Sequence record: OQ349392.1
Origin: Escherichia phage KIT06
Length of the DNA: 64,000 bases
Reading direction: 5' to 3' (one strand)
The translations under genes were made by a program, and so were the position numbers. The notes below the pieces were generated by a model. That model saw only the letters and a list, made by a program, of their open reading frames with translations, did no database searches and had not been told where the DNA came from. Every line of letters begins with the position of its first letter. The stretch's first letter is position 1. This document shows positions 8,914 through 17,934 of this stretch, in pieces.

Positions 8914-9371
8914 AAACTTTTAAAGAACGTTTAGCTCTGTTAGATAAAGCTTTGTCACGTGAGACTCCAGAAAGTTTGGCGGCTAAATTAGCTTCTTACA
9001 GTGGTGAATACACAGAACAAAATGTTTTAGATGAAGTTCCTGAAATCTGTTGGCAGTCTGCATACTGGGATGAAAACCAAAAGTACCAACGACGGATTGT
9101 TTGCGCAGCCAACCGTTTTAAATTAAAAGATGGACGAACTCTTATTATTCCAGGTGCTCGTCATTATTCTAAAGATATGGCAGCAGTTTTAGATGTAGTT
9201 AAACCTCAATTAGTTACTCAGCAAGTTTGTGATGATGACCAAGGGTTTATTGACCAATATAGTAATTATTGGACACGTGAAGAAGCAATGATTATTGCAA
9301 CTTACGCTGGACAAGTACGTGTTGAACGCGGCGGTAGTGAAAAAGAACTTTACTCTGAGGACCTTTACTAA
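8910..9371 (+). CDS. Hypothetical protein (153 aa)
   Basis: ORF with ATGA overlap to upstream gene. Confidence 0.5.
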
Positions 9372-9667
9372 TGAATATTAAAAAGTTTCAAATTGATGGA
9401 ATTATGAATCAAATCCAGGCATTGGAATATGCCAATAAAATGATGTCAACCAAATGGGGAATTTATGCCAATGAACCGGCATTTCAGTTTTGTAATATGG
9501 AATTCGCTAAAAAGCTCGTAGGAAAAGATTATGTATGTCCATTTAGTTCTCCAATAAATGGAATGCTAAAACCTGCTTTACGCGATCTTTATATCGCGAT
9601 GAACGAAGAAATGATAAAAGAACTAAAACGTCAACTAAAGGTGATTCAATTTGGCCAGGGAAATTAA
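9371..9667 (+). CDS. Hypothetical protein (98 aa)
   Basis: ORF with TAATG overlap to upstream gene. Confidence 0.5.
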   Translation: MNIKKFQIDGIMNQIQALEYANKMMSTKWGIYANEPAFQFCNMEFAKKLVGKDYVCPFSSPINGMLKPALRDLYIAMNEEMIKELKRQLKVIQFGQGN

Positions 9668-9951
9668 TTCAAAATCCGATTATTTTAATTCTCTCAATGA
9701 TAAAGATAAAATCTAATACGGCATTTTATTGTTGAGATGGGATATACTGACACACGTGATTTAAGAGAACATATATTTGAATGTGGTGTAGCTAAAAAGT
9801 TTTCATTCACATGCAAATGTTTAAGAGAGGTAATTCAGCACTATGAACAATTTAGTCGCAAAACATAATTTTAATAAAGCTTCTGTTCATAAAGATAAGA
9901 AGAAAGCGTTTAAAGAATCTAATCGCAAACAGAAACATAAGGGGAAGGTCT

Positions 9952-10230
9952 ATGATTATTGATTCTCAATCTGTGGTTCAATACACAATCAAAATTGATA
10001 TTCTAGAAAAGCTATATAAGTTTCTACCAAATTTATACCACTCAATTGTTAATGAATTAGTTGAAGAACTACATCTCGAGAATAATGATTTCTTGGTTGG
10101 AACTTATAAAGATAACTCAAAGGCGGGATATTTTTACGTAATTCCAGCTCCAGGAAAAAGTATTGATGATGTATTAAAAACTATAATGATTTATGTCCAT
10201 GATTACGAAATTGAAGATTATTTCGAATGA
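9952..10230 (+). CDS. arn: Anti-restriction nuclease inhibitor Arn-like (92 aa, acidic)
   Basis: 92 aa acidic ORF, length and position between motA and asiA match T4 Arn. Confidence 0.6.
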   Translation: MIIDSQSVVQYTIKIDILEKLYKFLPNLYHSIVNELVEELHLENNDFLVGTYKDNSKAGYFYVIPAPGKSIDDVLKTIMIYVHDYEIEDYFE

Positions 10231-10330
10231 GTCATAATCTTGAAATGGTAATCGAGCATAATGTAGCTCAGGAACATGAGTCGTTCAAGGAATTCGTAGA
10301 AAAAATTTTTGAAGAAAATAACACAGACCA

Positions 10331-10360
10331 ATTTACAAATCAAGCGTCTGATGATATTAT
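10331..10360 (+). promoter_or_regulatory. Early-type promoter upstream of asiA (ATTTAC-N18-TATTAT)
   Basis: ATTTAC 10331-10336, TATTAT 10355-10360. Confidence 0.45.
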
Positions 10361-10391
10361 AATAAAGTCAACTAATTGAGTGGTATAGTTA

Positions 10392-10664
10392 ATGAATAAA
10401 AACATTGATACAGTTCGTGAAATTATTACTGTTGCGTCTATTTTGATTAAATTTTCCAGAGAAGATATTGTTGAGAATCGTGCTAATTTTATCGCATTTC
10501 TGAATGAGATTGGAGTAACGCATGAAGGTAGAAAGTTGAATCAGAATTCATTCCGTAAAATTGTTTCTGAATTAACCCAAGAAGATAAGAAAACCCTCAT
10601 CGACGAATTCAACGAGGGTTTTGAGGGTGTATATCGATATCTAGAGATGTATACAAACAAATAA
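10392..10664 (+). CDS. asiA: Anti-sigma-70 factor AsiA (90 aa)
   Basis: 90 aa; sequence MNKNIDTVREIITVASILIKFSRED... recognised as T4 AsiA. Confidence 0.95.
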   Translation: MNKNIDTVREIITVASILIKFSREDIVENRANFIAFLNEIGVTHEGRKLNQNSFRKIVSELTQEDKKTLIDEFNEGFEGVYRYLEMYTNK

Positions 10665-11321
10665 TTATTTAGCCCTTCCTAATATTCTGGCCGCCTGAGA
10701 ACATATTGATTCAAGGCGGTCATTACTTATATGATCATTTCTATACCAGTACATGGTTATTGTTCCAGCATAGATGTTATCCAAATTAAAATATGGACAA
10801 CTGTACATGTAATTTATTTCGGGAGTAGGCTTTTTAGTTGGTAAAAAAGCAAATTTTGAATTGGAATAATAATGACGTCCATTTAAATGGACTGTATATT
10901 CATCCATAGTTTTATCAACAGGATATCCTCCAAGTGATTTTTCGGTTATTGTTGAAGGTAATCTTCCTTCGTATGCTATAATATCAACAAAATAGTTTAA
11001 GTTTTTAGGGCGGAAAGAATACACCGCACTAAAGTCTGCCTCAGATGATATGTGAACTATCTGGAGTTGTTCCAGGGCGACAGATTCAAAGCGTGCATTT
11101 CTTTCCTTTTCAATAATTTCACTGTATGTTTCATACTTTGATTGCTTATAGTACTCAAAGAAACTATCTCCCCTATACCAAACAATCGCCATTATAAACA
11201 AAAGAATTACGACAGCTACCCGGGAAGCAAGAACCTTCCCGGTAGCATTATCTTTGAACAAGCGATCTAGAACACCAAACAGAATATCAGAGGGCGAAAA
11301 TGATATTCTAGGTGCTGCCAT
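10665..11321 (-). CDS. t: Holin T (218 aa)
   Basis: 218 aa; N-terminal TM segment plus large periplasmic domain; matches T4 holin. Confidence 0.93.
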   Translation of the reverse strand: MAAPRISFSPSDILFGVLDRLFKDNATGKVLASRVAVVILLFIMAIVWYRGDSFFEYYKQSKYETYSEIIEKERNARFESVALEQLQIVHISSEADFSAVYSFRPKNLNYFVDIIAYEGRLPSTITEKSLGGYPVDKTMDEYTVHLNGRHYYSNSKFAFLPTKKPTPEINYMYSCPYFNLDNIYAGTITMYWYRNDHISNDRLESICSQAARILGRAK

Positions 11322-11351
11322 AGACCCTCCTTTTAAGGATATTTATTCAAA

Positions 11352-12143
11352 TTATACTCTTGCACCATATATTGTACCAACTTTAGTCCAAGTTGGAGCA
11401 TTACCAGTAACAGCTTTACCCGCAGCACCACCCGAGTGAACAGTTCCTCCAGTACCACCTTGAATATATGAAGATTTGCCAGCAGCTCCCAAATCTCCAC
11501 CATTTCCTCCATAGTGAACCCCAGAAACAGTACCTTTACCAGGAGCAGAAATTGTACCAGCAGATGCTGCCGCGGCACCGCCTCCAGCTTTACCTGCTGC
11601 ACCAAATGGACGACCTCCGCCGCCACCAAATATCATATCCATTTGAGGGAAAGGATGGTATCTAGCACCAGCGCCACCACCACCACCACCACCGATAATA
11701 CCATTATTGTTTATTCTTAAACGAGTTCCAATTCCGTTATTTATTGCAGTTCCTCCTGCTCCACCAGCAGAGTTACTTCCGCCATTTCCTCCTCGACCTA
11801 ATACATGAACCCCGCTATTAATATTTAAGGTAACGTATGCATTAGTTAATGAGCTAGGAAAATCTAAGCATGGAACACCAGTAGATTGAGAAACAATATT
11901 TCCTGTAATAGTAACAACAACAGGAGTACTACCTTGAGATTTGAGATAATTTATTAGCGTGTCTTTATTATAAGAATTGCTAGCACCAATGCTATAATAT
12001 ACTTCTTTAGATTGTCCAGCCATTGAGCTCATCCAACCAGGAACTGAAACACGAACTGCTTTCATTGCAGCGTCCATCCAACGTTGTCCAGTTTCATTCA
12101 CGGCAGATTCACCAATCCAGCCAGGAACACCTACAATTGCCAT
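11352..12143 (-). CDS. 38: Long-tail-fibre tip adhesin gp38, T2/T6 type (263 aa), with polyglycine motifs
   Basis: Glycine runs (GGGGGGGAG, GGGGR, GGNGG) separating variable segments; lies between gene 37 and t. Confidence 0.88.
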   Translation of the reverse strand: MAIVGVPGWIGESAVNETGQRWMDAAMKAVRVSVPGWMSSMAGQSKEVYYSIGASNSYNKDTLINYLKSQGSTPVVVTITGNIVSQSTGVPCLDFPSSLTNAYVTLNINSGVHVLGRGGNGGSNSAGGAGGTAINNGIGTRLRINNNGIIGGGGGGGAGARYHPFPQMDMIFGGGGGRPFGAAGKAGGGAAAASAGTISAPGKGTVSGVHYGGNGGDLGAAGKSSYIQGGTGGTVHSGGAAGKAVTGNAPTWTKVGTIYGARV

Positions 12144-12154
12144 TAAAAATCCTT

Positions 12155-12172
12155 AGAGGGCCGAAGCCCTCT
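12155..12172 (-). promoter_or_regulatory. Intercistronic hairpin between gene 37 stop and gene 38 start
   Basis: AGAGGGC-CGAA-GCCCTCT inverted repeat on the plus strand. Confidence 0.4.
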
Positions 12173-12173
12173 T

Positions 12174-15100
12174 TTACATAAGTTTAGATTCAAGTTCTTT
12201 TACACGAGCAGAAAGTGTTTTCACAGCTTCAACCAGAAGAGCAATCTGGGCTTGAGAAGAAACAGTGAGTATTTTATTACCCTTAATATCTTCAACTTCA
12301 CGAACTGCTTCAGGTAAAACATCTTGCAGTGTTTGAGCCACAATACCCGCTTCAGTCTGAACAATTTCACCACCTATATAGTCAGCTTTATCATAGATTA
12401 AACCATCAAGCTGTTCAACCTTTTCAAGAGCATTTTCAATAGGTCTGAAATTAGATTTCAAACGAATATCAGAACGAATATAAACGTTTGGGGCGTTTAT
12501 ATTCATGTCAGAATAGGTGTCACCTGTCTGGAATCTCATTCGGCGAGCTGCATTGGTCCAAACTTCTAAAAGACCGTCGCCAACCTGTCTGAAACCAGTA
12601 TCACTATCACCTATTACAATTGAGTTACCACCAAATCCGTTGCTTGTGTTAACACCAAGCGCCCCGGTAGAACCACAAGTCAATTTAGGGGTATAGAATG
12701 TACCGTCCATATCAAAAGTCCAACGAGCCTGTTGCCCTGATGCACTGTCACCACGCATGCGAATCATGCCTTGGCGCCAAGTACCAGGAACACCTAACCA
12801 TCCAAACTCAAACGATTGGCGATAACCCGCGTCAGTTAAAAGACTGTATCCAGAAAATAACGGGTAATAAGCTTGACTTGTCTTGGGAATGCTGCCAGTA
12901 TTCGCTAAGAATGCAGAACGGTCACGAGTCACATCAGAAATATCACCAAAGCTAGTGGACCACTGTCCTGCAACTTTAACTCGTGAATTAATGTTTCCAT
13001 TAATAGTAACATCTTTACCAAAAGAAGTATTTTCGTCAAGACGAACAGTACCAGCAGTCATATCAATTGAAAATGGTCGTTTTCCATTCCAACCACCTTC
13101 TGTTGCTGTGTTATCGCCGTCTGAAGCGTTTTTGTCGGTCAGTAAAATATAGAAGGTTCCACCATCATTTCGAAATAAAGCAGAATTAGAACCTGACCTA
13201 TCAGAATTACTCGTAATACGAATACCGGTTTGGTTATTAATAGCAATTTCAGATTCTGCTACATAACGCTTAACTTTACCGCGATCAACCAAGTTATTAA
13301 GAACATTAGCAACTTGACCGTTAACTGCTGTATCTGGAAGAGCATCTACAGGTGATTGTGTAGATGAGTTAATACCAATAACGCTAACAGTAGCATTTTC
13401 GGTACATGACCATTCACACGCTAGTTGATTACAATATGTTCCGGCATAAACATAAATGTCATATGTATTTCCAGAGACATTGTTAACTGCAATATTTCTA
13501 AATGCTGCGCTATACAGTCCAGATGTTCTTGTATATAATACAGCATTTAAGTCAGCAGGTCTTTCATTACCAGTACGTAAAATAATTTCAGCAATATTGC
13601 ATTGTGTGAATAATCCACTATTAAATCCAGAACCACCGGCTATTTTAAAGAAGACCGTAGAAGTAGATTGTGGCATTGTTACTGTTGCAAACTTATACCA
13701 TCCAGAGGTTGCTCCATAAGTAATAAATCCAGAATTAACTTTACGATTTAGCGTGGTATTTAAGTTGGCAAAGTTTCCTGAACCATTGGTAATATTACCG
13801 TCAGTTCCTAGTTGGGCATTGCCGACTTTAAGAGGCTTAGTAATATCGACAGAATCAGAATTTAATGCAATACCATGTGAATGTGTGTAGCTGTGCATAC
13901 GAACGACATTGCCGCCATCACCAATACCCAAATACCATTTAGGCACATCAGCCTTACGTCCTTGAATGAAGTTAGAAGACTCTTGTGTTGGAGCATTTAT
14001 TCTAATAGCATCGCTACTTGCATTAACTGTAATACGTTGACCAGCCGTAGTTCCAGCCACTTCTACTTTAAATCTTCCACCACCGATATCTACATCATGA
14101 TCCATGGAAACTTTACCATTACTTAATGTAATATAGAATGGACGTAAATTAGAAATGCCGCCTGATTCACCGGCATTCTGCGGAGTTGGAATAATATAAA
14201 ACTTATCTTCAGAACGACGGAAAATTGCGCCATATTCAGCATTCCAAATTCTTAATGCATCTGATGTTCCGCCGATTTTAACTTGCCCAGTAATAGAAGA
14301 ACCACCTTGGACAAACAAGCCGTTCTTCATTGTAACATTACCGTTTAAAGTGCTTAAACCATCAACTTTAAGATTTCCTGCAGTGCTAATAGAACCGTTA
14401 GCATTAACTGGTCCATTGAACTGGGTTACAACGGGCCCAACAGTTTCAGAACCTTCTGGGCGCTGGCGTTGTGAATAAAAATAATAACCTTGTGAATCAT
14501 ATACTTCAAATACAGTTTCTCTAATACCGGGAACTGAGTTAAAGGCATTACCCCATGCTTTAATTGAAACAGTATTTTTATTCTGTCCGTTACGAGTGCC
14601 TGCATCCCAGTTAATAGTTTTTGTCCCGTCAACACCTGTAGGCGCTTTAAATGACAAAGCATTGGTATTATCATCACCTGATAAAAATAATCCAGTACGC
14701 ATTGAAATACGTCGGGTTGAGTCAAATGTACCATCTGCTCTAATAGCAACTCTGTTAGAACCAGTGTTAATATCTAAAATTCCTGGTTCAACAAGGAGAC
14801 CTTGGGACATACCAACAGCCATACGACCTGTACCGCGGAAATAGTGATACATTTTAGAATTACTGTTATAACCGATATGAGTCTGACCATCGCCGTTATT
14901 ATTACCATCAATATCGGTACGCGCAGTAAACATTGCTTGGTTGTTATTTGGGAAATCCCAAGTAGAACCGGAATCTCGACTATAACCAACCATCAATTTT
15001 TTAGTACTATTAATACCATTATTCAAAATGGTAGCGGATGAAATACCGTTAGCCATCAGGTCATAAACGCCATCGCGGACCCATTTAATACCGGTATCGT

Positions 15101-16085
15101 TATCGCCAATCGCAATACCAATAGAAATTGCAGAATCAAGTGGATAACGGCCATTTGTACCACTATCAGGAAGACCTACTGAAATAGATTTACCTGCGGT
15201 AATACGTCCAGTGGTATCAAATGCCCACTGGAAAGACGAAGGTCCTACGCCGGTCCACCAAGAAATTTCTTGTGGCTTTCCTGAACGACAGTCAACTATT
15301 TCATGGAAAATGCTAGAAGTATTTGAAGCCCGCATTTTACGCATGTAGTTCAATCCGTTTGTATCACGGTCAGAACCATCTGCTGGTGGATTATAAATCC
15401 AAGTAGGTAAAGAAACAATGTCATAACCCGTGTCATTATTCGGTATAAAGGTTTTAGAACTCAGGTTAATATTTTTTGTATTGACGCGCGGTGCAGAAAC
15501 AAATCCAGTTGCCGAGTTAATATTGCCTGATGCAGAAATATTACCTGCACGGACTTCAATACTGCCATTATCTACAATAAAACTACCGTTACGATTAAAA
15601 GTCCAATATTTTGAATCACCAGATTCATTGATATATTGAATTTTAAAACTACCTTCGTTTACTAACGTACCAACAGAAAAAGTTCCATCTTTATAGCGTT
15701 GTTTAATTAGCGGATGGTATTCTGAAGTAGAAGTCGTTGAACTCAAATCGGTAAAGATAGGAGCTTTATTTTTATGTTGATTTGCCCAAGCACCATTACC
15801 AGCAGTTTTAGGTAAAAATTCAATATATTTTCCTGCATAAACAAACTGATTTCCATTAAGATTATATGTACCGTTCTGTAAATAATCTCCAGTTTGAGTG
15901 ATATTTCCACTGATATTACCGCCAGCGGAAATGCTTAAGTCAATGATATTTCCTGAATCATCTTTAGTAAAAATTGTTCTATCTTTTAAGTTTATAGCCA
16001 ATTCACCTTCGGCTAATACTGAAGCAGCAGGACGTGCACCTGCGGTTTTGCTTCTTTTAAATTGTATTTGTTTTAAAGTAGCCAT
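12174..16085 (-). CDS. 37: Long tail fibre distal subunit gp37 (1303 aa) with C-terminal intramolecular chaperone domain
   Basis: N-terminal half matches T4 gp37; C-terminus has S-D-I-R-L-K self-cleavage-like motif followed by coiled-coil tail. Confidence 0.9.
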   Translation of the reverse strand: MATLKQIQFKRSKTAGARPAASVLAEGELAINLKDRTIFTKDDSGNIIDLSISAGGNISGNITQTGDYLQNGTYNLNGNQFVYAGKYIEFLPKTAGNGAWANQHKNKAPIFTDLSSTTSTSEYHPLIKQRYKDGTFSVGTLVNEGSFKIQYINESGDSKYWTFNRNGSFIVDNGSIEVRAGNISASGNINSATGFVSAPRVNTKNINLSSKTFIPNNDTGYDIVSLPTWIYNPPADGSDRDTNGLNYMRKMRASNTSSIFHEIVDCRSGKPQEISWWTGVGPSSFQWAFDTTGRITAGKSISVGLPDSGTNGRYPLDSAISIGIAIGDNDTGIKWVRDGVYDLMANGISSATILNNGINSTKKLMVGYSRDSGSTWDFPNNNQAMFTARTDIDGNNNGDGQTHIGYNSNSKMYHYFRGTGRMAVGMSQGLLVEPGILDINTGSNRVAIRADGTFDSTRRISMRTGLFLSGDDNTNALSFKAPTGVDGTKTINWDAGTRNGQNKNTVSIKAWGNAFNSVPGIRETVFEVYDSQGYYFYSQRQRPEGSETVGPVVTQFNGPVNANGSISTAGNLKVDGLSTLNGNVTMKNGLFVQGGSSITGQVKIGGTSDALRIWNAEYGAIFRRSEDKFYIIPTPQNAGESGGISNLRPFYITLSNGKVSMDHDVDIGGGRFKVEVAGTTAGQRITVNASSDAIRINAPTQESSNFIQGRKADVPKWYLGIGDGGNVVRMHSYTHSHGIALNSDSVDITKPLKVGNAQLGTDGNITNGSGNFANLNTTLNRKVNSGFITYGATSGWYKFATVTMPQSTSTVFFKIAGGSGFNSGLFTQCNIAEIILRTGNERPADLNAVLYTRTSGLYSAAFRNIAVNNVSGNTYDIYVYAGTYCNQLACEWSCTENATVSVIGINSSTQSPVDALPDTAVNGQVANVLNNLVDRGKVKRYVAESEIAINNQTGIRITSNSDRSGSNSALFRNDGGTFYILLTDKNASDGDNTATEGGWNGKRPFSIDMTAGTVRLDENTSFGKDVTINGNINSRVKVAGQWSTSFGDISDVTRDRSAFLANTGSIPKTSQAYYPLFSGYSLLTDAGYRQSFEFGWLGVPGTWRQGMIRMRGDSASGQQARWTFDMDGTFYTPKLTCGSTGALGVNTSNGFGGNSIVIGDSDTGFRQVGDGLLEVWTNAARRMRFQTGDTYSDMNINAPNVYIRSDIRLKSNFRPIENALEKVEQLDGLIYDKADYIGGEIVQTEAGIVAQTLQDVLPEAVREVEDIKGNKILTVSSQAQIALLVEAVKTLSARVKELESKLM

Positions 16086-16093
16086 AAGTCCTC

Positions 16094-16756
16094 TTAATAA
16101 TAGCCGAAATCTTGAACAGAATCCTTAATTACGATTTGGTCAAATCGTGGAACGTGTGAAGGTTGAGATGCAGGATTCTGCGAGAAAAAGTTTGGTGCGG
16201 TTAAGTTTCCCGTCATAGTGTCACCAGATCGTAACACTCTAGAGTTCGCATTTGCCGTAACAGTATTTATTGCTCCATCAACATAGTCCTTCCTAGTAAG
16301 GTCATTAGCTGATACAGGAGAAACTGCATTACTTCTTATTTGACCTACTGCTGTCACGACGCCTTTTGTACTAATATCACCATTACGTGCATTAATTACA
16401 ACAGTTCGGTCTGCTGAACCTTGTGATGATTTAAAACCAATACCATTCCACGAAACGATGTCAATATTTGCCATAGCAAAAGTAGCTGCATCACCGTTGC
16501 CTGGATAAACACCGCACTGTTGACTACTACCTATAGTAGGAACATGTACTCCTCCATTAAATCGAACAGTCGCGGCATAAGTACCACCATTAGCTTTAGA
16601 AACGAAATCGTTATCTGCAGCTTGTGGTTTATTATATTCTGAATATATTTTAAATGATTTATAGAGTACATCGTCACCGGCTGGATTCAATGGAAAATTT
16701 CCTTGATGCCAAATGACAGAGCCTCCAGTTGTTGAACCTACTTTTAAATCAGCCAT
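16094..16756 (-). CDS. 36: Long tail fibre hinge subunit gp36 (220 aa)
   Basis: Length and position match T4 gp36. Confidence 0.85.
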   Translation of the reverse strand: MADLKVGSTTGGSVIWHQGNFPLNPAGDDVLYKSFKIYSEYNKPQAADNDFVSKANGGTYAATVRFNGGVHVPTIGSSQQCGVYPGNGDAATFAMANIDIVSWNGIGFKSSQGSADRTVVINARNGDISTKGVVTAVGQIRSNAVSPVSANDLTRKDYVDGAINTVTANANSRVLRSGDTMTGNLTAPNFFSQNPASQPSHVPRFDQIVIKDSVQDFGYY

Positions 16757-16779
16757 TGTATGCCCCTTTATTTTAATAG

Positions 16780-16787
16780 TATTTATA
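16780..16787 (-). promoter_or_regulatory. Late promoter TATAAATA for genes 36-37-38
   Basis: Plus-strand TATTTATA is TATAAATA on the minus strand, about 24 nt upstream of the gene 36 ATG. Confidence 0.6.
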
Positions 16788-16794
16788 AAGAAAA

Positions 16795-16822
16795 AGGGAA
16801 CCCGAAGGCTCCCTCAATTTAT
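16795..16822 (-). terminator. Hairpin terminator downstream of gene 35
   Basis: AGGGAGCC-TTCG-GGTTCCCT hairpin (one G-U pair) plus T-run on the minus strand. Confidence 0.5.
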
Positions 16823-17934
16823 ACTTCTCTAAATTCTTGCCCAAACACTTTACCAGTTTTAGACGATGCTTGTGTAGGAAGTACCATTATATCCGGAGGT
16901 GAAGCAGATTCACAGATATAATTAACGCGAATGCCGTTGACGCCAAATTCAGCAGGTTTCGAAATACCTCCATTTCTTGACACTTCAGAAAAGCTTAAAT
17001 TTCTCATGCCACCTTGACCAGCTTGCGCAGTTCTTTGCGCGTATATCGTAAATCCCACAGCGTTTTCTGGAACAACCACATAATCTTCCTTTAATTCCCA
17101 AGACCCAGCTTGTCCGGTAAACTCAGCTTGTGTCGAGGAAATATATCCATTAGATGCATTATAAAAGCGGATAGATATATTTGTAGTTCCAAGCGCAAGT
17201 AAATCTGCATCGGCATATAACTGAGCTTTAAGATAAAGAACATCGCCAGGAATTAAATTATAATCAGAGAGTTTACTTATAGCAGCTGAAGTTGGCAATC
17301 GCGCAATTTCGTTATTGGTTCCGCCAACTGCCGACATAAATTGATCAACGCTTTCATATGTTCTTTTTGGAAACCCGGTAGCTCCAACGTCTTCTAAACT
17401 GTCAAATACAACATCTAAAATAGTTTGATAATCATCTGTGCTTTTTCTATTACTTAATTTGACATGCTCTAATGCAATAGCTCTTTTAGAAGAAGTGTAA
17501 AAAGCAGCATATGATACGTCGAATCTTGACAATATAGAATCAGATGGAAAAGCAGACGTTCCTGCGGTTCTTAGCCAAGATACTACTTCAGGAGGAAAAT
17601 TAACCTTTCCGCTAGTTAATATAGCAACAAGTCTATTATTCGTCAAAGAATTCATGAAACTAACAAAAGCAGCTGATGTAGTATCATTTGAAGTAGAAAA
17701 AGCATATGACTTACTATCAACTAATGCTCCTGTGGAAGGGTCAAAAACTCTTAAATGAAGACCTGCGCTAAATGTTTGACTTCCGACAGGATTATCCTGA
17801 AATTTAACGTACGGTCCTGCAGTAGAAAGCGGGCAAGAACCCGCTATACTTATTTTGTATCTTACTGAATTACTTTCCGATAAAAATGGCGTTTGGACAT
17901 ATCCTTGTCCAAACTCTGCCATAAATTTTTCCAT
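16819..17934 (-). CDS. 35: Long tail fibre hinge connector gp35 (371 aa)
   Basis: Length and position match T4 gp35. Confidence 0.85.
   Translation of the reverse strand: MEKFMAEFGQGYVQTPFLSESNSVRYKISIAGSCPLSTAGPYVKFQDNPVGSQTFSAGLHLRVFDPSTGALVDSKSYAFSTSNDTTSAAFVSFMNSLTNNRLVAILTSGKVNFPPEVVSWLRTAGTSAFPSDSILSRFDVSYAAFYTSSKRAIALEHVKLSNRKSTDDYQTILDVVFDSLEDVGATGFPKRTYESVDQFMSAVGGTNNEIARLPTSAAISKLSDYNLIPGDVLYLKAQLYADADLLALGTTNISIRFYNASNGYISSTQAEFTGQAGSWELKEDYVVVPENAVGFTIYAQRTAQAGQGGMRNLSFSEVSRNGGISKPAEFGVNGIRVNYICESASPPDIMVLPTQASSKTGKVFGQEFREV

Follow-up and report, generated by a model that had tools for sequence, protein, structure and literature searches.

Gene 38 of the window, the whole 64,000-nucleotide stretch of DNA analysed here, lies on the minus strand at 11352..12143, and its 263-residue product is very probably a T2-type receptor-recognising adhesin, gp38, that would cap the tip of the distal long-tail-fibre subunit gp37 and whose present set of hypervariable segments would recognise Tsx. 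The protein is 100% identical over 263 residues to WCS66656.1, the 'receptor recognizing protein' of Escherichia phage KIT06 (genome OQ349392, 167,059 bp), and the predicted Tsx specificity draws on this identity together with the close similarity to gp38 of three relatives, AV114, AV115 and Bas43. Publications already cover the gp38 protein along with its architecture, receptor and cassette-style evolution. Gene 38 determines host range and here predicts dependence on Tsx, which is of use in designing phage cocktails and in anticipating resistance through loss of tsx; beyond annotation, the import is small.

Family, fold and genomic context of gp38

The open reading frame comprises 263 codons, from an ATG start to a TAA stop at 11352-11354 on the minus strand, and its translation matches the Pfam families PF05268 and PF21721. 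GP38 scores 232.6 bits (cut-off 25; 6e-69) over profile positions 1-218 of 218, and Gp38_N scores 64.7 bits (cut-off 25; 7e-18) over residues 1-42. The best PHROG, 2056 ('tail fiber protein; host specificity'), covers the full length at 1e-100, and a phmmer search against PDB sequences returned as sole matches 6F45_D, which is S16 gp38 (4e-49), and 9V85 (3e-32), a GFP-gp38 fusion representing the receptor-binding domain of PP01 gp38 (PMC12892980). An AF2 model built with 108 homologues as input reached a mean pLDDT of 93.2 and a pTM of 0.87; at E<=0.001 Foldseek retrieved from the PDB only 6F45_D (E 4e-23, TM 0.79/0.83) and chains A and C of 9V85 (TM 0.71/0.84 on 9V85_C), all remaining matches having E>1.

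The predicted structure has three domains, a helical attachment domain, a beta-helix and a polyglycine-II (PGII) sandwich, and thus shares its architecture with the gp38 proteins of S16 (PDB 6F45; Dunne et al. 2018) and of the E. coli O157 phage PP01 (PDB 9V85; PMC12892980). The glycine-rich motifs (GRMs) align one to one with those of both proteins, and identity in the structural alignments is 42% to S16 gp38 and 38-39% to PP01 gp38. In the S16 crystal structure the glycine motifs are polyglycine-II helices packed as a three-layer sandwich, the hypervariable segments (HVSs) between them are distal loops for which receptor contact has been proposed, and the N-terminal domain has three conserved tryptophans that dock on the trimer of gp37 (PMC6851490). 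DSSP assigns the Gly-rich stretches of our AF2 model to neither helix nor strand, and the PGII geometry is predicted by homology. The three attachment-domain tryptophans are present as W9, W22 and W37; W9 and W22 are invariant in an alignment of ten gp38 sequences, and position 37 is W in Tequatrovirus, Mosigvirus and S16 and Y in Krischvirus-type sequences.

The surroundings of the gene are equally typical, with the canonical order g37-g38-t. Gene 37 (12174..16085, minus strand) encodes the 1303-residue distal long-tail-fibre subunit, which carries a C-terminal Peptidase_S74 intramolecular-chaperone domain as well as gp37/gp34 trimerisation regions (Pfam PF13884 at residues 1205-1262, PF20744 and PF21446; PHROG 1699), and by analogy gp37 would be the partner whose tip is capped by gp38. 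The holin gene t (10665..11321, minus strand; Pfam PF11031, 4e-117) follows immediately downstream of gene 38. Between g37 and g38 lies a hairpin, AGAGGGC-UUCG-GCCCUCU (12155..12172, minus strand), conserved in TB004, T2, Bas39, AV114 and Bas43 and followed by an AAGGA Shine-Dalgarno sequence. Genomes of Tequatrovirus, the genus to which KIT06 also belongs, match the first 25 kb of the window at 94-96% nucleotide identity, and the Logan contig SRR17680687_6 matches it over 8 kb at 100%. Four further open reading frames, at 11333-11629 (minus strand) and at 11468-11665, 11514-11720 and 11254-11439 (plus strand), are located inside the well-supported frame of gp38 or overlap it, and were discounted as probable products of low-complexity codon usage. 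In 10400-12400, the match to a sigma-70-like promoter and most of those to terminators were likewise set aside as consensus noise, gene 38 being a late gene of a T-even phage; the g37-g38 hairpin is the exception.

The initial annotation had called the product a gp38 adhesin, and this is borne out by Pfam, PHROG, the PDB sequence match, the predicted fold and the g37-g38-t order; the reading as an ordinary long-tail-fibre adhesin of the T2/T6/S16 type is supported, as judged from sequence and model. The locus is, however, also the one named gene 38 in T4, and the records of RB18, SA20RB, teqhal, AV109/114/115 and vB_Eco_Geo name the product 'distal long tail fiber assembly catalyst' or 'tail assembly protein', as would suit a T4-type gp38, an assembly chaperone that assists the folding of gp37 without being part of the virion. 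We give this reading next to no probability. Pfam and PHROG match the adhesin family, with adhesin models covering the whole length, and no tail-fibre-assembly chaperone family was matched in Pfam at E<=0.01. Both the sequence and the predicted fold match the adhesin crystal structures of S16 and PP01, whereas the sequence of T4 gp38 differs greatly from that of the adhesin (PMC6851490; PMC3157838), and gp37 here has an S74 intramolecular chaperone domain of its own. The chaperone-like product names are a transfer of annotation from T4, and the T4-type assignment was rejected on family, PDB match, fold and gene context.

A mode of action for the adhesin can be proposed from the AF2 model and from its homologues of known crystal structure, the gp38 proteins of S16 and PP01. 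Monomeric gp38 would cap the trimeric gp37 tip of the Tequatrovirus long tail fibre, its three-helix N-terminal domain (residues 1-45, with Trp9, Trp22 and Trp37) plugging into hydrophobic pockets of the gp37 trimer. The central beta-helix would bear two long excursions whose glycine-rich motifs form polyglycine-II helices in a three-layer 'PGII sandwich', leaving the HVSs between the motifs as distal loops that would engage an outer-membrane beta-barrel at its extracellular loops; for the present HVS allele this barrel would be the nucleoside channel Tsx. In the general T-even model, reversible binding by the long fibres is followed by binding of the short fibres to LPS and then by contraction; here, the long fibres would bind Tsx reversibly, after which the short fibres would bind the LPS inner core and the tail would contract. 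The deep LPS core is needed by both KIT06 (PMC11274021) and Bas43 (PMC8594841).

Glycine-rich motifs and hypervariable segments

As published, gp38 is built from five GRMs with four HVSs set between them (Trojet et al. 2011, PMC3157838), and the C-terminal half of the window protein likewise has five such motifs separating four such segments. We compared them segment by segment in the alignment of ten sequences (the window protein, Bas43, AV109/114/115, Brandy, two metagenomic relatives, T6, T2, M1 and S16) and in a broader alignment of 108 (107 database homologues and the window protein), with a comparison panel made up of M1 (OmpA), T2, T6, S16 and PP01; gp38 of K3 and Ox2 fall outside this panel. 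Glycine accounts for 47 of the 127 residues between 116 and 242 (37%, or 51% together with alanine) and for 9.6% of residues 1-115. Across the window's 41 open reading frames of at least 150 residues the mean is 6.8%, gp38 being the richest (23%), followed by gp37 (11%).

The N-terminal attachment domain (residues 1-45; 12009..12143, on the minus strand like all the segments that follow) corresponds to Gp38_N, has AF2 helices at 10-18, 23-29 and 38-41 and, by analogy, would dock on the gp37 trimer tip with Trp9, Trp22 and Trp37. Residues 46-115 (11799..12008) form the N-terminal part of the central beta-helix, as indicated by AF2 strands and by alignment to the beta-helix of S16 and PP01. The first motif, GRM1 (GRGGNGG, residues 116-122; 11778..11798), is identical in seven of the nine other aligned sequences and keeps 6/7 residues in T2 and S16; G116, R117, G118 and G119 are invariant among the 108 sequences. 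HVS1 (SNSAGGAGGTAINNGIGTRLRINNNGII, 28 residues, 123-150; 11694..11777) is the least variable of the four HVSs and partly beta-helix, with identities of 28/28 to Bas43 and AV114, 19/28 to T6 and 15/29 to S16. GRM2 is a run of seven glycines (residues 151-157; 11673..11693), and its codons, (GGT)6GGC, are the one tract that resembles a microsatellite. HVS2 (AGARYHPFPQMDMIF, residues 158-172; 11628..11672), a predicted beta-hairpin loop (AF2 strands 160-165 and 168-173), is identical in Bas43 and AV114 (15/15), shares 8/15 residues with T6, PFPQM among them, and 1/15 with T2.

GRM3 (GGGGGRPFG, residues 173-181; 11601..11627) is conserved at 9/9 positions in all sequences compared except S16 (8/9). 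The 30-residue HVS3 (residues 182-211; 11511..11600) matches Bas43 and AV114 at 29/30 positions, T6 at 12/30 and T2 at 6/31, and its K185 is the sole HVS difference from AV114/AV115. Within GRM4 (GGNGG, residues 212-216; 11496..11510), G215 is invariant among the 108 sequences, and the conservation of G213 and G216 is 90% or higher. HVS4 (21 residues, 217-237; 11433..11495) is identical to AV114 (21/21), differs from Bas43 at one position (20/21) and retains 6/21 residues of T6 and 4/21 of T2. GRM5 (GGAAG, residues 238-242; 11418..11432) is the same in all ten aligned sequences (5/5), and the conserved C-terminal strands of residues 243-263 (11355..11417) close the beta-helix according to the alignment and the AF2 model. 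Relative to T6, T2, M1 and S16 the GRMs have at most one mismatch per motif and most are identical (5/5 to 9/9), whereas the identity of HVS2-4 to T2, M1 and S16 falls to between 1/15 and 13/31.

The initial annotation had quoted five glycine strings as conserved runs alternating with short variable segments. All five occur in the translation: GGGGGGGAG at residues 151-159 (11667-11693), GGGGRPFG at 174-181 (11601-11624), GKAGGGAAAAS at 184-194 (11562-11594), GGNGGDLG at 212-219 (11487-11510) and GGTGGT at 229-234 (11442-11459), in each case on the minus strand. Two of them, GKAGGGAAAAS and GGTGGT, sit inside HVS3 and HVS4, respectively, are not conserved in the alignments and are therefore lineage-specific; the conserved GRM1 and GRM5 had been overlooked. 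Nor does 'short' describe HVS1, HVS3 and HVS4 with their 28, 30 and 21 residues.

Tsx as the predicted receptor and a second Tsx-binding allele

KIT06, whose gp38 is the window protein, does not infect the Keio delta-tsx strain, and its lowest infection rate is seen on waaC, where infection is strongly impaired (PMC11274021). The term 'gp38' has no occurrence in that paper, which leaves the Tsx dependence unlinked to gene 38; assigning the reported phenotype to this gene is a small addition of the present analysis. Across HVS1-4 the identity is 94/94 to KIT06, 93/94 to AV109/AV114/AV115 and 92/94 to Bas43, which places the protein with the Tsx-specific gp38 alleles of the AV114/Bas43/KIT06 type. 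Recognition of Tsx has been shown experimentally for AV114 and AV115 (PMC10844046), and for Bas43 TadeuszReichstein, a BASEL phage, the supplementary table of PMC8594841 gives Tsx as the primary and the LPS deep core as the terminal receptor. The receptor can be predicted from gp38 phylogeny (PMC12032242), and a swap of gp38 sequence from HVS2 onward changes which porin or receptor is used (bioRxiv 10.64898/2026.04.02.716166). That the loops carry outer-membrane-protein specificity, as had been proposed for this gene, matches these two reports as well as PMC6851490 and PMC3157838. The variable segments are identical to those of a single characterised phage, the Tsx-dependent KIT06, as is the whole protein, and the specificity is thus already known. 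A separate observation on KIT06 is its weak infection of the btuB-defective strain RK4792, which has a different background (PMC11274021); this weak plating is unexplained by the Tsx model.

The relatives on which the assignment draws are very close. Bas43 and the Mosigvirus phages AV109/AV114/AV115 have gp38 proteins with 97.0% amino-acid identity to the window protein and identical GRMs, and the differences consist of K185A in HVS3, A261S and five to six substitutions in the beta-helix (residues 48-77), to which Bas43 alone adds Q228K in HVS4. The genus of the AV phages is not that of KIT06, and their downstream holin is only 63-87% identical to the window's at the nucleotide level. That AV114 and Bas43 have Ala in place of K185 need not be neutral, because single substitutions in HVS3 can switch the receptor: Q206L in HVS3 takes RB51, which uses OmpF, to the phenotype of RB68, which uses OmpW (bioRxiv 10.64898/2026.04.02.716166).

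Since single HVS3 substitutions can retarget gp38 and KIT06 displays a weak btuB-linked effect, it is conceivable that the relevant receptor of this adhesin is not, or not only, Tsx, and might instead be OmpA, FadL, OmpF, OmpC or BtuB. Small HVS changes do retarget such adhesins, as in the RB51-to-RB68 porin switch; the Krischvirus AV108 has a related adhesin and yet uses OmpA, owing to differences in HVS3 and HVS4 (PMC10844046), and PST, only three residues apart from T6, gains the use of OmpA (PMC3157838). We nevertheless consider a different or additional receptor improbable. KIT06 itself has K185 and is Tsx-dependent all the same, its identical protein going with a complete loss of plating on delta-tsx (PMC11274021). 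RK4792 and the Keio parent are not isogenic, which leaves the btuB effect uncontrolled, and the adhesin literature cited here holds no report of BtuB binding by a T-even gp38.

Given Tsx as the predicted receptor, the comparison with T6, the classical Tsx binder (Trojet et al. 2011, PMC3157838), is informative. T6 gp38 belongs to the same family and has the same domain order, the same five GRMs and the same receptor, and it shares with the window protein the PFPQM core of HVS2 (8/15) and a GTIS.PG.G.V.G pattern in HVS3. The two proteins are, however, only 55% identical overall, with 12/30 residues in HVS3, 6/21 in HVS4 and 23/70 in the beta-helix. The low HVS identity to T6 indicates that two or more diverged sets of HVSs recognise Tsx, and the KIT06-type set would constitute a second Tsx-binding allele, distinct from that of T6, another small addition. 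Two diverged sets fit the large group of gp38 proteins with predicted Tsx specificity described by Lutz et al. (PMC12032242). A further idea, which we regard as speculative and rather unlikely, is that the set of KIT06, Bas43 and AV114 has a footprint on the extracellular loops of Tsx other than that of the T6 set, and that K185 might add to the weak BtuB-linked phenotype of KIT06. Were the footprints separate, phages of the two alleles would escape each other's resistance arising from tsx point mutations.

In T2 gp38 the N-terminal attachment domain is identical to that of the window protein at 43/45 positions, and nucleotide identity is 93-100% in the end of g37, the intergenic hairpin and the holin gene; the specificity cassette, however, is replaced (HVS2 1/15, HVS3 6/31, HVS4 4/21). 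The receptors of T2 gp38 are FadL and OmpF, and that of M1 gp38 is OmpA. OmpC is the receptor of the gp38 proteins of S16 and PP01, whose HVS loops bear no relation to those of the window protein (2/15 in HVS2 and 3/21 in HVS4 for S16).

Glycine-codon DNA and cassette exchange

The 61 glycine codons of gene 38 include 33 GGT and 19 GGA, and the earlier description of the DNA at 11460-11720 as GGT/GGA-rich and repetitive holds for its composition; the DNA is only mildly repetitive. With a lowered threshold, TRF found a single 28-nt period-3 array at 11666-11693 with a score of 42 (default threshold 50). It consists of (GGT)6GGC followed by GCT GGT, the perfect repeat spanning just 18 nt. A repeat search returned only imperfect in-frame repeats of 13-22 nt with 70-93% identity, and no inverted repeats in the glycine-codon region. 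What had been taken for repetitive DNA is a biased Gly/Ala codon content, not true repeats.

The same DNA had been held to be prone to slippage, and on this view the glycine codons would form a contingency tract in which gain or loss of GGT units alters GRM length and modulates host range at high frequency. The perfect (GGT)6 plus GGC tract at 11673-11693 is what such a mechanism would act on, and the GRM2 glycine run does vary across 116 homologues (counted as 3-9, roughly 4-10 Gly, a count of qualitative use only because the pattern absorbs one leading residue and is one too low where that residue is Gly). Moreover, the metagenomic protein P0003, from another lineage, has three glycines fewer than its near-twin P0002, the single such deletion among the 116. 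We judge the contingency reading very improbable all the same. The perfect repeat is limited to 18 nt, below the default TRF threshold, and TB004, Bas43, AV114 and kaaroe, each with seven glycines at GRM2, interrupt the tract with GGC/GGA, as does Bas39; the perfect (GGT)6 is thus private to the present genome and its purity is not conserved. Among the same-allele relatives examined there is no length variation in GRM2, all having exactly seven glycines. In T6, deletion of a whole GRM is lethal to adsorption (PMC3157838), which argues that GRM length is structurally constrained. A phase-variable contingency locus was rejected on its defining test, as no long perfect tract of varying length was found among near-identical genomes. 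In-frame indels do arise over evolutionary time, with no sign in these sequences of a high-frequency slippage switch, and the proposed proneness to slippage is left barely supported, by one 18-nt (GGT)6 tract.

The companion proposal, that this DNA is prone to recombination, fared better and is borne out by cassette-shaped profiles of nucleotide identity, computed in a 60-nt sliding window along the gene 38 region. Conserved GRM DNA and conserved gene ends would serve as homology anchors through which a GRM1-to-GRM5 specificity cassette is exchanged between phages. Trojet et al. (PMC3157838) delimited the specificity determinant to a segment of about 400 bp with four HVSs and described cassette exchange, and exchange bounded by the glycine motifs, as the sequences suggest it, is clearly visible here against both Krischvirus and Bas39, the phenomenon itself being already published. 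Relative to the Krischvirus kaaroe, identity reaches 92-98% only from about residue 114 (GRM1) to about residue 242 (GRM5); the N-terminal part is 58-83% identical, the flanks are unalignable and gene 38 of kaaroe lies elsewhere in its genome. A cassette common to phages with unalignable flanks is a further small addition. The pattern is inverted relative to Bas39 FriedrichMiescher, with 93-100% identity up to about residue 100, 43-65% over residues 143-242 and 97% thereafter. In a further combination, the protein P0004 joins a window-like N-terminus to T6-like HVS2-4.

Transfer of the adhesin specificity region between genera

The closest match to the KIT06 adhesin gene (gene 38, 11352-12143, minus strand) is found in phage TB004, at 98.7% nucleotide identity. 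The specificity cassette running from the first to the last conserved glycine-rich motif (GRM1 to GRM5, 11418-11800) is 92-98% identical at the nucleotide level to its counterpart in Krischvirus kaaroe (MN850574, 1486-2271). Identity in the N-terminal domain of gp38 is only 58-83%, and the flanks of the gene, which occupies a different genomic neighbourhood in kaaroe, are unalignable. The cassette is a clean case of cross-genus transfer with the glycine motifs as its bounds.

Comparison with the Mosigvirus AV114 suggests that a larger segment can also move. Gene 38 of AV114 is 82-100% identical to that of KIT06 per 60-nt window and exceeds 95% across most of its length, whereas the adjoining holin gene t (10900-11330) reaches only 63-87%. 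Because identity is high in gene 38 and low in the holin gene, gene 38 may have moved between genera together with the 3' end of gene 37 as one unit. Within gene 38, a patch at 11540-11625 (residues 173-202) shows only 84-85% nucleotide identity to Bas43, AV114 and kaaroe and contains a single amino acid difference, K185A, in the third hypervariable segment; the remaining changes are synonymous and affect glycine and alanine codons. TB004 is identical to KIT06 in the part of this patch checked base by base. The patch may represent a micro-recombination tract, or it may reflect relaxed codon choice in the GGN/GCN runs.

Mosaic gene 37 and the hairpin preceding gene 38

The distal part of gp37, the tail-fibre subunit encoded upstream of gene 38, is itself mosaic (12500-12900). 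Positions 12690-12900 are 86-95% identical to Bas43, essentially unalignable with TB004, Bas39 and AV114 (about 15-40%), and only 15-62% identical to T2. The final ~45 codons of gene 37 are 97-100% identical in all five phages. Megablast against TB004 returned no match to 12504-13215, 13998-14465 or 16310-16576.

The 30-nt gap between genes 37 and 38 contains a minus-strand hairpin (AGAGGGC-UUCG-GCCCUCU, 12155-12172) with a 7-bp stem and a UUCG tetraloop, followed by an AAGGA Shine-Dalgarno sequence spaced 7 nt from the gene 38 ATG. TB004, T2, Bas39 and AV114 all share this hairpin unchanged, Bas43 has one change in the stem, and kaaroe, where gene 38 does not adjoin gene 37, lacks it. C(UUCG)G hairpins in T4 intercistronic regions are very stable, and we take the KIT06 element to resemble them.

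Annotation of the adhesin locus and related public reads

GenBank records label orthologues of the adhesin 'distal long tail fiber assembly catalyst', 'tail assembly protein' or 'hypothetical protein', including those of RB18 (MH553563), SA20RB (OL960581), teqhal (MN895435), AV109, AV114, AV115 and vB_Eco_Geo. The assembly-type names are a position-based transfer of the T4 gp38 chaperone name, and such annotation misleads host-range prediction.

Four ORFs encoding 61-98 aa overlap gene 38 in other frames within 11254-11720: 11254-11439, 11468-11665 and 11514-11720 on the plus strand and 11333-11629 on the minus strand. We rejected them as genes given the strongly supported gp38 frame in the same DNA; they look like by-products of low-complexity glycine/alanine codon DNA. 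ARAGORN found no tRNA genes across positions 1-64000, and the window therefore holds no tRNA cluster.

Among public read-set assemblies, a 17-kb Logan contig (SRR17680687, contig 6) is 100% identical to 9001-17000, which places the same phage, presumably either KIT06 itself or one of its clones, in that sequencing run.
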